A stretch of DNA of 26,921 bases from positions 1 through 26,921 of IMG/VR virus record IMGVR_UViG_3300020045_013539. One strand, given 5' to 3'. Position 1 is the first letter of the stretch, and each line of letters begins with the position of its first letter. The notes below the pieces were generated by a model. That model saw nothing but the letters and a program-made list of their open reading frames with translations, was not told the DNA's origin and ran no database searches. The position numbers and the translations under genes are program-made. Shown here one piece after another: positions 7,908 to 26,921 of this stretch. This DNA is from a virus. Its lineage: Duplodnaviria > Caudoviricetes.

Positions 7908-10409
7908 ATGGTTTCAAAAAAAATTCAGCAGGCAGTAGGAAGGGGATCTACATATGTTGACGTTCTACCGACACCGATTTTAGCTCAAAGAGCTCCTGCG
8001 AGTTCGGATATTCTTCCTGCTGGTCAATTATTTATTGATGAGTCAACTAGTCCGTCTACGGTCTATACGAGTTTAGGAAATGGGGATTTTGCTACAGGTG
8101 GAAATGAAATCGCAAGCGCAACCACGTATGGTATCGTGTTACTGACGGACAATGATGCGCCTACTGGAACTGTTGCCTCAAAAGCGTATGTTGATAATAT
8201 TGCAATCTCCGGTTCTCCGGTATCTACTGAAACTGTTGCTGGTATTGGGCAATTAGCTACGAATGCTGAAGCGGTTGCAGGAACTGCATCAACAGGAGTT
8301 CTTGCATTATTCGTCACGCCTTCAAATCTATCATCAGTATTTGCAGCTAATCCAGCAATTGGTGGAACAACTCCCGCAGCAGCAACAGTAACAGATTTTA
8401 CAGCAACAGGAACGATCTCTATCGCATCCGCTGCGCCGATTGTCATTGACGTTACTGGAGCCGGAAATGATCTAACTCTATCGAGCGACGCAGGTCGAGT
8501 AATAGTTAATGGTGAAGAGGCTGCAGCAAATGCTGTGACTATTGTTTCGGCAGTAGGCGGCGTTGATTTAGACGCAGCATTGCAGGTTAATATCGCATCG
8601 TCTCAAAATGCCGCAGATGCTATTCGAATTGTAGCATCGGCCGGAGGAATTGATGTCGACGCTGTTGGCAGTGCCGGAGAAGATATCAATATTACGAATA
8701 CTGGTGGTAGCGTTGTTATAGTGGCAACTGAAAGTGCGGCAGATTCCGTTGTAATTCAGTCAACTCTTGGGGGTATCGATATTTTAGCTAGTGGAGCTAG
8801 TGCTGGCGAGGATATTGATATCATTGCGACGGGTAGTTCGGTGAATATTACGAGCACTGAAAACAATTCTGGAGCTATATTAATTACGGCAAACGGAGGA
8901 ACTTCAGAAAGAATTACTTTGAATTCTGCACAAGGTACAGGGGCAGACAGCATCAATCTCGAGTCTACTGCTGGTGGTATTACACTTTCAGCAGCCCTTG
9001 CCAGCGCGGACGCTATTAATCTTGCAGCTAGTGCTGGAGGAGTTGATATCGATGGAGCGCTTCAGGTCAACATTGCATCAAGTCAAAACGCAGTGGATGC
9101 GATCAGAATTGTAGCAAGTGCCGGAGGTATTGACATCGACGCCGTCGGAGCAGCCACAGAAGATATCAATATTACGAATACTGGTGGTAGCGTTGTTATA
9201 GTGGCTACAGAATCGGCAGCAGATGCTATTAGAATGAATGCGTCAGGAGCTGCTGGAGGTTTTGATATCGACGCTGGAACTAACGGCTTTATCGTCGATA
9301 CGACAGGGGCTATATCATTAGATTCAGCAGCGGCATCTAATTTTACTGTAACTGGAGCTTTCGATCTCAGTCTAATTTCAAGTCTAGGGTCAGTAAACGT
9401 AACAGCAGGAGAGGATGCAGCCGACGCAATTGTATTGAGCGCAGGAGCTGGAGGAATCGATATTTTAGCGACTGGTGCAGCTGGGCAGGATATAGATATC
9501 GTTAACACTGGTGGTTCAGTAAATATTTCAGCAACGGAAAACGATGCCGGAGCTATTGCGATCACAGCTAACGGTGGAACGTCAGAAAGAATTACTCTTA
9601 CAGCGTCTCAGGGCACTGGAGCAGCTAGTATTGGTCTAACGTCAACAGCTGGTGGAATAACGTTAACAGGTGGTTTAGCAACGGCAGATGCAATTAACAT
9701 TGTGGCATCAAATGCAGCTGGAGGAATTGATATCGACGCTGGAACTAACGGTGTGATTGTCGATACTACTGGAGCTATCAGTTTAGATAGTGCAGCAGCG
9801 TCTAATTTTACTGTAACCGGAGCTTTCGATTTAACATTAAATTCAACAGCAGGAAGCGTGAATTTGACGGCAGGAGAAAGTGCCGCTGATTCAATGGTAT
9901 TTACAAATAATGGTATGGATATCGTTATTTCTGGAGCAGCTGGACGAGATTTCGATCTAACGAATACTGGAGGATCGATCAATATTACGGCAACGGAAAA
10001 CGTAACAGATGCTATCGTTATTAATGCGTCTGGTGCAGCGTCTGCTATTTCTGTTGATTGCGGAACAGGATCATTTAGATTTGGAACTGGTATTGTTGTT
10101 CCAGTAACATCAAAAGGAAACGCAGATACACCCTATACAGTTCTTGGAACAGATTATTTCATTTCATGCGATACGTCTGGCGGTGTTTTAACTGTGACAT
10201 TACCAGCAGCTACAGCGCTGGCAGGACGTACATTTGTTATCAGAGATACAGGAGGAGCCGCAGCCGTAAACAATATTACGATCGGCGGAGGAGGCACAAA
10301 CTTAGTTGGGGGTGGGGCTTCTGCGGCATCAAAAACATTGAGTGCAGCATACTCCGGGGCTAGGGTAATCTCAAATGGAACGACCTGGAATTACGAATAT
10401 ATTGCATAA
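7908..10409 (+). CDS. Long repetitive tail-fibre/adhesin-like protein
   Basis: 833 aa, A/G/S/T/I/D-rich. Fibre-type motifs 'ASATTYGIVLL' and 'STETVAGIGQLATNAEA', many 'AADAIxIxASAGGIDIDA' repeats, and a C-terminal 'TDYFISCDT...LP' domain. Confidence 0.75.
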   Translation: MVSKKIQQAVGRGSTYVDVLPTPILAQRAPASSDILPAGQLFIDESTSPSTVYTSLGNGDFATGGNEIASATTYGIVLLTDNDAPTGTVASKAYVDNIAISGSPVSTETVAGIGQLATNAEAVAGTASTGVLALFVTPSNLSSVFAANPAIGGTTPAAATVTDFTATGTISIASAAPIVIDVTGAGNDLTLSSDAGRVIVNGEEAAANAVTIVSAVGGVDLDAALQVNIASSQNAADAIRIVASAGGIDVDAVGSAGEDINITNTGGSVVIVATESAADSVVIQSTLGGIDILASGASAGEDIDIIATGSSVNITSTENNSGAILITANGGTSERITLNSAQGTGADSINLESTAGGITLSAALASADAINLAASAGGVDIDGALQVNIASSQNAVDAIRIVASAGGIDIDAVGAATEDINITNTGGSVVIVATESAADAIRMNASGAAGGFDIDAGTNGFIVDTTGAISLDSAAASNFTVTGAFDLSLISSLGSVNVTAGEDAADAIVLSAGAGGIDILATGAAGQDIDIVNTGGSVNISATENDAGAIAITANGGTSERITLTASQGTGAASIGLTSTAGGITLTGGLATADAINIVASNAAGGIDIDAGTNGVIVDTTGAISLDSAAASNFTVTGAFDLTLNSTAGSVNLTAGESAADSMVFTNNGMDIVISGAAGRDFDLTNTGGSINITATENVTDAIVINASGAASAISVDCGTGSFRFGTGIVVPVTSKGNADTPYTVLGTDYFISCDTSGGVLTVTLPAATALAGRTFVIRDTGGAAAVNNITIGGGGTNLVGGGASAASKTLSAAYSGARVISNGTTWNYEYIA
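8678..9205 (+). repeat. Identical 48-nt direct repeat, 480 nt apart, within the 833-aa gene
   Basis: AGAAGATATCAATATTACGAATACTGGTGGTAGCGTTGTTATAGTGGC at 8678-8725 and 9158-9205. A 25-nt identity TTGATATCGACGCTGGAACTAACGG also occurs at 9262 and 9727. Confidence 0.9.
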
Positions 10410-24604: not shown

Positions 24605-25084
24605 ATGGTTGCAGGTAGACCGAGAGAAACAACTCCACCTCCCGAAGAGTGTATTGAACTTGGAAAAAAACTTGTAAAGTGGGCAACAGAGAAAATACCA
24701 GAAGGAGAACCATTACGCTCTAGATTCTGCGAATGGTACACTTTAGAAGAAATTGGAATGATTAGAAATGAATGGGAAGCTCTATTAAAGATCCCAGAAT
24801 TCCGCGTGTATTATGAGAGAGCACAAGCTGCATTAGGTAGAAAACTAATTGATGGGACAATTAATCCTAGCATTGGCCATCGTTTTATGTGGCATTATGT
24901 TCCTGAAGCAAAAGATCAAGAAATCGAAAAAATGGAAGCTCAGGCACGGATCAATAAAGCTAATGAAACTGCATCTACTCCGCAAAAAATAGTATTCGAG
25001 GTAAATTATCCAACCAACATTAACAATCAAGTCGAAATTTTATCCGCGGAATTATCAGATAAAAATACTTCAGGCATTAAATAG
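24605..25084 (+). CDS. terS: Terminase small subunit (putative)
   Basis: N-terminal 'MVAGRPR', helical, 159 aa, overlaps the start of the large subunit. Confidence 0.7.
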   Translation: MVAGRPRETTPPPEECIELGKKLVKWATEKIPEGEPLRSRFCEWYTLEEIGMIRNEWEALLKIPEFRVYYERAQAALGRKLIDGTINPSIGHRFMWHYVPEAKDQEIEKMEAQARINKANETASTPQKIVFEVNYPTNINNQVEILSAELSDKNTSGIK

Positions 25085-26921
25085 TGGGATTAAACGCGCG
25101 ATATGGTGCTGCCACCGTCGCGCCGGAAAAGACGTCACAATATTTAACTGGTGCATCGAGCAGCTCATTAAAGAAACTTGTACCTGTTTCTATGTCATGC
25201 CAACGTATTCTCAGGCAAAAAAAGTTATTTGGGATTCGACAACGAATGATGGATTTCGCATTATAGATTATATTCCGAGTGAATTTATTGCACAAAAAAA
25301 TCAGCAGGAGATGAAAATACGTTTGACAAATGGATCGTTATTTCAGCTGATTGGCAGTGATAACATCGATTCATTAATGGGAACAAACCCGAAAATAGTT
25401 GTATTCAGCGAATATGCACTACAGACACCAGCGGCGTGGGATTTTATTCGACCGATTTTAAAAATTAATGGGGGATATGCAGTATTTATTAGCACTCCAC
25501 GCGGTAGGAATCATTTTTTCGAACTGTGCGAGATGTCTAAAACGCAACCAGATTGGTTTTATGAGAAATTGACATATCGAGATACCAGTGTTTTAACAGA
25601 CGAAGATATTAAAAAAGAAATCGCAGAGGGAATGAGCGAAGAGCTTGCCGAACAGGAATACTCATGTTCATTCGATCGAGGTATCGACGGTGCGTTTTAC
25701 GCTAAACTGATCAATAAAATGCGTAACGAAGGCAGAATTATCGATCTATCATACGACCCATATAAACTCGTACACGTGAGTTTTGACCTTGGATGGGATG
25801 ATTGCACCGCGATAATATTTTTTCAAATAGACGGAGAGAAAATCAAAATTATAGACTGCGAGGAGCATAGCAATAAAACTCTCGCGTGGTATTCGGAGCT
25901 TTTAAAAAAAAAGGGATACAATTACGGAACATATTTATTTCCCCACGATGTGAAACAGGTAGACGGATTATCTACAGGGCTGACTAGGCAAGAGATTTTA
26001 GAGGATTTACAGATTCCTGTAACGATTGTTCCTAGGAGTTTTATCGTCGACGGTATTGAAGCTGTAAAAGCAATGCTATCATCAAAGATAATCATCAACG
26101 AAAAATGTTTTACATTGATAAAAGCTCTCGAAAATTATCACAGGGAATGGGATGATAAAAGAAAGGTTTACAGTAATAAACCAAATCACAACTGGTCTTC
26201 GCACATGTGTTTTGATGGAGACACACTCTTAAAAATGGAATCAGGATATAAAAAAATTTCAGAAATTAACGTTGGGGATTTAGTTTTTACTCCAAACGGA
26301 CCAAAAAAAGTTTTGAAAAAATTTATTCACGAAACTACTTCTTTAAGGAATATCCAAACACAAACTTACAGTTTAAAATGCACGGACAAACACAAGATAT
26401 TTGCGAGAAAAGGATTGATTTGTTCTGACACATTAAGGTATAATGATGAGATATATACCTTAAAGGACTTAGATATATGTCAGAAGATTGGATTCCTTGG
26501 AAAGGCGAAAAATTTAGGATTTCGGGATTATTTCTTATTAATGAAGACGAAGAGTCTCTTTACTTCAATGGCAGAAGATATAAATGGGATGGAAACTACT
26601 ATAAAAAAGGATACACGGAAGAATCACCATTTTCAACGCTCCAAAGAGCTGTTTGGGCTTACTATAAAGGAAAAATTCCAGAAGGTTATCACGTTCATCA
26701 TAAAGACGGCAACAGAAAGAATAACGATATATCAAACTTTGAGCTTATTTCATCTTCAGACCATTCCAAACTTCACATGTGTACAGAAGAAAGAAAAGAA
26801 CTATCGCGAAAAAACATTTACAAAGCTATGGAACATGCAAAAGAATGGCATCAATCAGAAGAAGGCAGAAAGTGGCATAGAGAACACGCACAAAAATGCA
26901 ATTTTGGAAAGAATAAACCAG
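25008..26921 (+). CDS. terL: Terminase large subunit, intein-containing, 3'-truncated by the window (not in ORF track)
   Basis: Manual translation, open from 25005 to the end: adenine-binding 'PRNYQ', Walker A 'HRRAGKD', Walker B 'VVFSEY', motif III 'ISTPRG', RNase H-like 'FDLGWDD', 'PHD' and 'KPNHNWSSH'. Confidence 0.95.
   Translation, partial: MQPTLTIKSKFYPRNYQIKILQALNSGIKRAIWCCHRRAGKDVTIFNWCIEQLIKETCTCFYVMPTYSQAKKVIWDSTTNDGFRIIDYIPSEFIAQKNQQEMKIRLTNGSLFQLIGSDNIDSLMGTNPKIVVFSEYALQTPAAWDFIRPILKINGGYAVFISTPRGRNHFFELCEMSKTQPDWFYEKLTYRDTSVLTDEDIKKEIAEGMSEELAEQEYSCSFDRGIDGAFYAKLINKMRNEGRIIDLSYDPYKLVHVSFDLGWDDCTAIIFFQIDGEKIKIIDCEEHSNKTLAWYSELLKKKGYNYGTYLFPHDVKQVDGLSTGLTRQEILEDLQIPVTIVPRSFIVDGIEAVKAMLSSKIIINEKCFTLIKALENYHREWDDKRKVYSNKPNHNWSSHMCFDGDTLLKMESGYKKISEINVGDLVFTPNGPKKVLKKFIHETTSLRNIQTQTYSLKCTDKHKIFARKGLICSDTLRYNDEIYTLKDLDICQKIGFLGKAKNLGFRDYFLLMKTKSLFTSMAEDINGMETTIKKDTRKNHHFQRSKELFGLTIKEKFQKVITFIIKTATERITIYQTLSLFHLQTIPNFTCVQKKEKNYREKTFTKLWNMQKNGINQKKAESGIENTHKNAILERINQ
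26208..26921 (+). mobile_element. Intein (Hint domain) inserted in TerL, C-terminal part outside the window
   Basis: Block A 'CFDGDTLL...KKISEINVGDLV' begins right after 'NWSSHM'. Block B 'LKCTDKHKIF' contains TxxH. Confidence 0.92.
26477..26921 (+). CDS. HNH homing endonuclease encoded in an alternative frame inside the intein (3'-truncated)
   Basis: AAGGA RBS (26463-26467) and ATG 26477. MSEDWIPWKG...LQRAVWAYYKGKIPEGYHVHHKDGNRKNNDISNFELISSSDHSKLH..., no stop before the window end. Confidence 0.9.
   Translation, partial: MSEDWIPWKGEKFRISGLFLINEDEESLYFNGRRYKWDGNYYKKGYTEESPFSTLQRAVWAYYKGKIPEGYHVHHKDGNRKNNDISNFELISSSDHSKLHMCTEERKELSRKNIYKAMEHAKEWHQSEEGRKWHREHAQKCNFGKNKP

Follow-up and report, generated by a model that had tools for sequence, protein, structure and literature searches.

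The last 1.9 kb of the virus record IMGVR_UViG_3300020045_013539 (Duplodnaviria; Caudoviricetes), which was analysed over its whole length of 26,921 nt and is called the window in the following, carry the gene of a phage large terminase subunit (TerL) (match to phrog_2, terminase large subunit, E 7.7e-30). This gene is highly likely to be interrupted by an intein whose middle part is overprinted in the −1 frame with the gene of an HNH endonuclease, an element in which predicted splicing would restore the terminase and the separately made nuclease would spread the element.

The TerL frame is free of stop codons from position 25005 to the end of the contig and continues, as a sequence-only reading of this stretch had claimed, directly into the intein, which begins with Cys1 (TGT at 26208) and contains block B as T59xxH62 (26382-26393). 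The intein is inserted just ahead of the final conserved Asp in the nuclease motif of TerL, within a few codons of it; within the family several adjacent sub-sites are used. With the Hint families of Pfam the intein's N-terminal part gave matches below the cut-offs only (E 5e-4 to 3e-3); C1 and H62 are invariant across 63 aligned inteins. There are 0 stops in the 238 codons of the intein frame, which thus lacks the stop after the N-half that characterizes a split intein. The sequence-only reading had also placed in the −1 frame, behind a TGA at 26447, an HNH gene with its own AAGGA and ATG under an intein frame that stays open over all remaining codons, and this is what the sequence contains.

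The ATG of the HNH gene (26477) follows the TGA by 27 nt, and from there 148 codons remain to the contig end. Residues 55-97 of the product match Pfam HNH_3 above the cut-off (E 1.5e-15), the catalytic motif (HH..N..N/H, intact) is encoded at 26690-26746, and the zinc-ribbon tail known from the relatives falls past the contig end. The product is 62% identical to a 225-aa protein of the nearest viral locus (L001). When the profile of the HNH family was compared with the PDB, a single match was obtained, which was to I-HmuI (1U3E, E 0.0023). Between blocks B and F the window has no in-frame endonuclease of the kind found in canonical inteins, the HNH sitting in the −1 frame; a nuclease open reading frame (ORF) nested in an open intein frame marks the element as a non-canonical intein.

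What lies beyond the contig end can be judged from complete relatives. In L001 a TerL of 830 aa contains an intein of 332 aa that ends with Ser-Asn/Ser and is followed by the extein; the HNH gene begins 269 nt downstream of Cys1 and has its stop 52 nt short of the junction. In all complete relatives parsed (58 loci) the intein frame reaches blocks F/G and resumes TerL, the HNH gene stopping 34-91 nt before the junction. In the nearest relatives the intein has a length of 330-333 aa, and the splice junction of the window copy is expected approximately 94 codons past the contig end. The intein of L001 matches TIGR01443 above the cut-off, and its AlphaFold model has a pLDDT of 92-98 for residues 1-90, of 91-97 for residues 301-332 and of mostly 41-77 in between. 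This model, of a relative and not of the window protein, matches the gp41-1 intein (E 4.8e-7, rmsd 1.7), so that a Hint fold is predicted with confidence, the middle part being modelled with low confidence or as disordered. The HNH of L001 was modelled with a mean pLDDT of 95.5. The layout of the relatives, the substitution rates given below and the model of L001 all bear out the earlier claim of a separate HNH gene within an intein whose middle is an open linker.

The family was surveyed in 170 loci, comprising the window, L001, the best 80 of 570 confirmed viral hits, the best 80 of 449 metagenome hits and 8 regions picked from 24 cultured-phage records. At 104 of them a contiguous intein has its HNH nested in the −1 frame and at 6 in the +1 frame; the intein halves are non-contiguous at 25, an intein is lacking at 14, and 21, the window included, are cut or one-sided. 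Of loci from genomes (best 80 of 94), 48 were nested in the −1 frame and 1 in the +1 frame, 10 were split or broken, 19 had no intein and 2 were one-sided; the 48 nested ones come from records of 16 phyla (3 unassigned), many of these records being bins with uncertain hosts. The proportions of the states are biased, since in both sets duplicates were kept and ranking was by likeness to nested queries. From the first set 107 representatives with less than 70% identity were drawn (L086, L087, L145, L192 and other cut or one-sided loci excluded), of which 72 are nested in the −1 frame (the window counted), 20 split, 10 free and 5 nested in the +1 frame. The catalytic motif is intact in 71 of the 72 nested representatives. 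All of 44 host ORFs scanned gave an intein/Hint match and at least 29 gave a terminase match among the matches listed; in those without a listed terminase match the printed junctions carry the same terminal motif. The nested form is also present in the cultured phages phiCDHM19, Highwayman, TJE1 and LS06-2018-MD07, in which terL is the sole annotation and the HNH is unannotated.

Homologues and dN/dS values in both frames had been named by the sequence-only reading as one way to examine its claim. In 12 independent pairs of nested loci, which are 75-99% identical and in none of which the window takes part, the pooled dN/dS was 0.18 for the HNH frame, 1.24 for the overlapped intein frame and 0.24 for the splicing domain (first 70 codons); 325 of the 566 substitutions are at third positions of HNH codons. 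The HNH frame is thus under purifying selection, which is relaxed in the intein frame that it overlaps. Between the window and four relatives identity is 57-62% for the HNH frame, as compared with 31-41% for the intein frame.

The statement of the sequence-only reading that NTA and NTG codons of the HNH are followed by bases avoiding a stop in the intein frame is true, and in this gene it rests on 6 such codons, which makes it weak when taken by itself. An open +1 frame arose by chance in 422 of 20000 recodings of the window HNH with the codon usage of the window (2.1%), in 407 of 20000 shuffles of its codon order (2.0%) and in 8258 of 20000 synonymous permutations (41%). For the window gene alone stop avoidance is suggestive; it is the family that provides strong evidence. 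Per 100 codons, the +1 frame of free and split HNH genes holds 3.5-3.8 stops, and it is open in 0 of 30; their NTA codons number 4.4-5.2 per 100 vs 1.66 in the nested genes, of which all 72 distinct ones have an open +1 frame by definition.

The HNH is likely to be made as a separate protein from its own ribosome-binding site and start codon, as the signals in front of the gene and its relatives indicate. In 67 of 70 nested representatives a start codon is found near the start of the HNH domain (29.9 expected), and a strong Shine-Dalgarno sequence precedes 34 of 88 candidate starts vs 27 of 334 control triplets (p 5e-11). A −10-like hexamer (at least 5 of 6 matches) is located 4-49 nt from the start in 40 of 67 loci vs 63 of 334 controls, and 14 loci without a strong Shine-Dalgarno sequence have a −10-like box at the leaderless-like distance of 5-7 nt (controls 21/334); these −10 and promoter enrichments are uncontrolled for relatedness, low GC and choice of the start. 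The promoter candidate of the window lies 32 nt 5′ of the HNH ATG, and its −10 box coincides with the Tyr-Asn codons of an LRYND motif of the intein. Motifs of the LRYND class occur in 22 of 72 nested vs 0 of 20 split representatives, and the Tyr-Asn pair is spelled TATAAT in 8 of 11 cases in this motif vs 21 of 64 in the exteins. A promoter scan of the window region found 4 sites vs 3.0 expected, which is not significant, and a hairpin over the ribosome-binding site, equally good in 13 of 200 shuffles (z −1.58), is not put forward as a signal. Taken together, the signals are suggestive of an internal promoter and a dedicated start for the HNH. L033, L064, L078, L179 and others are among the loci that lack a Shine-Dalgarno sequence and have a −10-like box 5-7 nt from the start.

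As for mobility, the intein is missing at this site from 24 of 24 TerL proteins related to that of the window (identity 32-82%), the empty sites being Met/Tyr-Cys-Asp-like (Met-Cys-Asp in L091, L092 and L094). In their exteins the nearest intein-bearing loci are 37-42% identical to the window and the closest empty alleles 76-81%, a pattern that fits lateral spread. In a FastTree phylogeny of the HNH, which is unrooted and has many weak forks, the nearest relatives of the window form a clade with 98% support, 9 of its 10 rows being nested; the four states are clustered, yet 13 changes are needed where 3 would be the minimum. We propose that, past the contig end, nothing of the window copy is missing and that its intein would be excised by the standard route via Cys1, Asn and Cys+1, whereby the essential terminase would be restored. 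The HNH, translated separately and perhaps transcribed from the internal promoter, would nick or cut intein-less terL in the manner of I-HmuI, after which the element would be copied into the break by recombination. The arrangement may have originated when a free-standing, terL-associated HNH gene entered a mini-intein.

There is next to no chance that the window shows a usual intein with its HNH in frame, shifted by a single-base error of the assembly. At 26289-26439, 26458-26617, 26685-26835 and 26732-26921 contigs assembled from public runs are identical to the window without gaps (one or more of these runs may be the window's own source; X1 and X2, whose contigs extend 54 bases past the window end, seem to be a single data set), and the fact that no contig bridges 26440-26457 is what can be said for such an error. 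The stronger argument is that from conservation across relatives, by which the error is largely ruled out: the same offset recurs in independent genomes, with a distance from Cys1 to ATG of 269 nt in the window, L001, L003 and L118, the intein-frame peptides of L001 and of the window align in register over the overlap, and an HNH in frame within a contiguous intein was found in 0 of the 170 loci and 0 of the 80 genome loci. The frame offset is real. That the copy is split or broken past the contig end, or the phage defective, is distinctly improbable. The 25 loci with non-contiguous halves and the lack of a standard TerL start codon in the window (see below) would be in line with it; in 23 of these 25 loci, however, the frame of the N-half closes at most 37 codons from the start of the HNH domain, whereas in the window it is open for 138 codons past this point, and as long-open and then broken are L145 and L192 only. 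Because of these 138 open codons the intein of the window is very probably contiguous. The signs that the sequence-only reading had itself named as speaking against it, namely a stop in the intein frame before the junction, an intein C-terminus in the HNH frame or an indel, were absent from the relatives with the exception of 2 of 170 loci (L145, L192).

The sequence-only reading had left −1 ribosomal frameshifting at A-AAT-TTA as another route into the HNH frame, which would yield a TerL-intein-HNH fusion. The heptamer is canonical and in the correct register, yet an in-register heptamer occurs in 4 of 70 nested loci vs 5 in other registers, the HNH-frame residues encoded 5′ of it are conserved, and in one related contig (depth 2.8), whose likeness to the window starts at the ATG, the heptamer is altered by a change that is silent in the HNH frame. 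With heptamers no commoner in register and not conserved, this route was rejected as very unlikely. A domesticated HNH that serves the terminase as a packaging cofactor rather than as a homing enzyme is unlikely, too. By eye and from ORF ends, about 10 of 14 free-standing HNH relatives are directly behind a terL-like gene, and a terminase-associated role has been raised for the nested HNH of brucellaphage (PMC4422536); a cofactor would be hard to reconcile with the absence of the element at this site from 24 of 24 TerL relatives, its presence in very different terminase families and the resemblance of its profile to the homing enzyme I-HmuI.

Several findings weigh against this proposal. The window ends 5′ of the C-terminal splice junction, so that blocks F/G, the terminal Asn and the +1 residue lie beyond it. 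Between 25005 and 25197 the TerL of the window has no ATG, GTG or TTG at the position at which its relatives start, L094 and L105 having ATG there, and because of this the window copy could be defective; translation possibly begins at an ATT or ATC preceded by GAGGT, or else the copy or its assembly may be at fault. Strong Shine-Dalgarno sequences are found in just 34 of 67 nested loci, and 19 of 67 have neither these nor a −10 box at the leaderless distance. In a Foldseek search with the HNH model no match fell below E 0.001, the top row, I-HmuI, being a weak fold match (E 0.078). Similarity to the window in the HNH and in the extein is weakly correlated (Spearman 0.30, p 0.015, n 64), which indicates that inheritance is partly vertical or transfer partly restricted to related exteins. 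Finally, the HNH tree is unrooted and gives no order of events.

Table 1. Features at the 3′ end of the window (positions in the window; aa, amino acids)
Feature	Position	Strand	Basis or remark
Gene 5′ of terL, 159 aa, in the position of a small terminase subunit	24605..25084	+	Label by position only
TerL N-extein (ATPase and most of the RNase H-like nuclease domain)	25005..26207	+	Terminase_6C, E 5.7e-5; phrog_2, E 7.7e-30
Putative N-terminal splicing region of the intein, with Cys1 and blocks A and B (TxxH)	26208..26474	+	Hint matches; C1/H62 invariance; L001 model
Sigma70-like promoter candidate TTGATT-18 nt-TATAAT within the intein coding sequence	26415..26444	+	10/12 match
TGA closing the HNH frame upstream	26447..26449	+	
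Shine-Dalgarno-like AAGGA, 9 nt 5′ of the HNH ATG	26463..26467	+	Duplex energy −5.3 kcal/mol; family enrichment
Putative intein-frame linker over the HNH gene, open to the contig end	26475..26921	+	Frame analysis; low pLDDT of the L001 linker
HNH endonuclease gene, −1 frame, first 148 of about 225 codons	26477..26920	+	HNH_3; likeness to L001; I-HmuI profile match
A-AAT-TTA heptamer in the intein register	26510..26516	+	Not conserved, probably incidental

The opening of the TerL frame overlaps the 3′ end of the gene in front of terL, whose product gave no meaningful match in Pfam and PHROG scans. Among probable virion genes farther upstream (7908-10409) a low-complexity, repetitive protein of 833 aa is encoded. 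In L106, upstream of position 1090, the TerL match begins with query residue 57 and is preceded by unrelated in-frame sequence, perhaps another insertion.

Other loci of the family show further arrangements. The same HNH family is nested in the +1 register at the same TerL site in L126, L128, L129, L131, L144, L186 and L261. L078 (162-3380) has two inteins in one terL, both overlapping a −1-frame HNH gene of their own; the first sits at another site, between the ATPase and nuclease domains. The terL of L046 (3-3314) also gives a LAGLIDADG match upstream that probably belongs to a second, canonical intein. Apparent natural split inteins in terL are present in Lactobacillus phage CL2 (L089, 506-2771), with an HNH between the halves and with the C-half and the TerL tail unannotated, and in Brochothrix phage BL3 (L087, 727-2607), with a partial HNH between the halves. 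In phage phi CD119 (L086, 778-2595) a break after 67 intein residues, either natural or due to a sequencing error, is annotated as two genes; the same element is contiguous in phiCDHM19. A start codon for the C-half is available in 22 of 22 of the approximately 22 split relatives. In L145 (2435-3268) and L192 (218-931) the C-part of the intein is read in the HNH frame; compared with L021, L145 lacks one base and is for this reason put down to an indel or assembly error.

The novelty of the layout, which the sequence-only reading had placed high, was overrated: inteins with an out-of-frame nuclease are already in print for dnaX, for terL of brucellaphages and for actinophages. In 2015 an intein with an out-of-frame HNH gene was reported in terL of the brucellaphages Tb and Pr (GenBank JN939331, ORF7/ORF8) (PMC4422536), which have in common with the window family the TerL host, the contiguous intein and an entire nested HNH gene (about 228 codons) that uses another frame of the same strand. 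The Tb intein is found in the ATPase half behind TerL residue 174, by our reading close to Walker B, and its HNH is in the +1 frame with the zinc-binding part before the HNH motif, unlike the window family with its site at the C-terminal nuclease motif, its −1 frame and its HNH motif before the zinc ribbons. The family profile matched the Tb protein in short pieces only (E 1.1e-10), and Tb is not among the tblastn matches listed. The order of the nuclease domains and the position at the TerL nuclease active site set the window family apart.

For a cyanobacterial dnaX intein, a preprint (10.64898/2026.09.14.751524) describes a homing endonuclease that is encoded by a +2 ORF, and credits Gorbalenya 1998. 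This intein resembles the window family in the overlapping frame, a Shine-Dalgarno-like motif of the nuclease's own, a disordered linker, and a dN/dS low in the nuclease frame and raised in the intein frame, and differs in its LAGLIDADG nuclease, its cellular host gene and its occurrence in one phylum. In actinobacteriophages, according to the available text of another preprint (10.1101/2025.01.02.630785), non-canonical inteins, many of them in terL, contain endonuclease VII-like nucleases in frame 3 and antisense nucleases. The separate nuclease ORF on the same strand inside the intein and the model proposed for its origin are the same as here; the nuclease family is another one, such genes are called rare, and in that text HNH nucleases are given as in-frame only. 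The Pfam scan of the window HNH found no endonuclease VII family, but HNH_3.

Split inteins with a nuclease between their halves, which were of the GIY-YIG and Vsr-like families, have been described (PMC2677866); in the portion accessible HNH nucleases were suggested to be able to do the same and none was reported. About 22 relatives share this layout, the window being unsplit within the available sequence. In the ShiLan insertion, as far as the source is accessible (PMC11855218), a hidden out-of-frame HNH in a phage methylase is likewise overprinted on an open host frame; it has no splicing domain, and the host gene is non-essential. The terL inteins of mycobacteriophages sit in the ATPase domain according to the available part of the respective paper (PMC5050341). 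No publication on HNH inteins at the TerL nuclease site was found in a search with most subscription journals and the supplement of 10.1101/2025.01.02.630785 outside its coverage.

With I-HmuI the window family shares the HNH core; unlike I-HmuI it has C-terminal zinc ribbons, and the fold match is weak. I-HmuI is encoded by an intron.

Among the 250 loci examined, which were top-ranked hits and not deduplicated, 152 are complete and nested, vs out-of-frame intein nucleases being called rare in the preprints as far as accessible. The series of free, split and nested genes lends itself to studying how inteins gain an endonuclease and how they split, and provides a data set of overlapping genes; it includes approximately 22 candidates for natural split inteins, and the targets of the predicted nucleases can be guessed from the insertion site. 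We see about an even chance that the window belongs to an undescribed and very abundant lineage of inteins at the terminase nuclease active site, with free, split and, in two registers, nested HNH genes, repeated switches between these states and a promoter within intein codons. If so, dual-coded inteins would be common rather than rare, and the path from a free endonuclease to a full or split intein would be traceable within one family.

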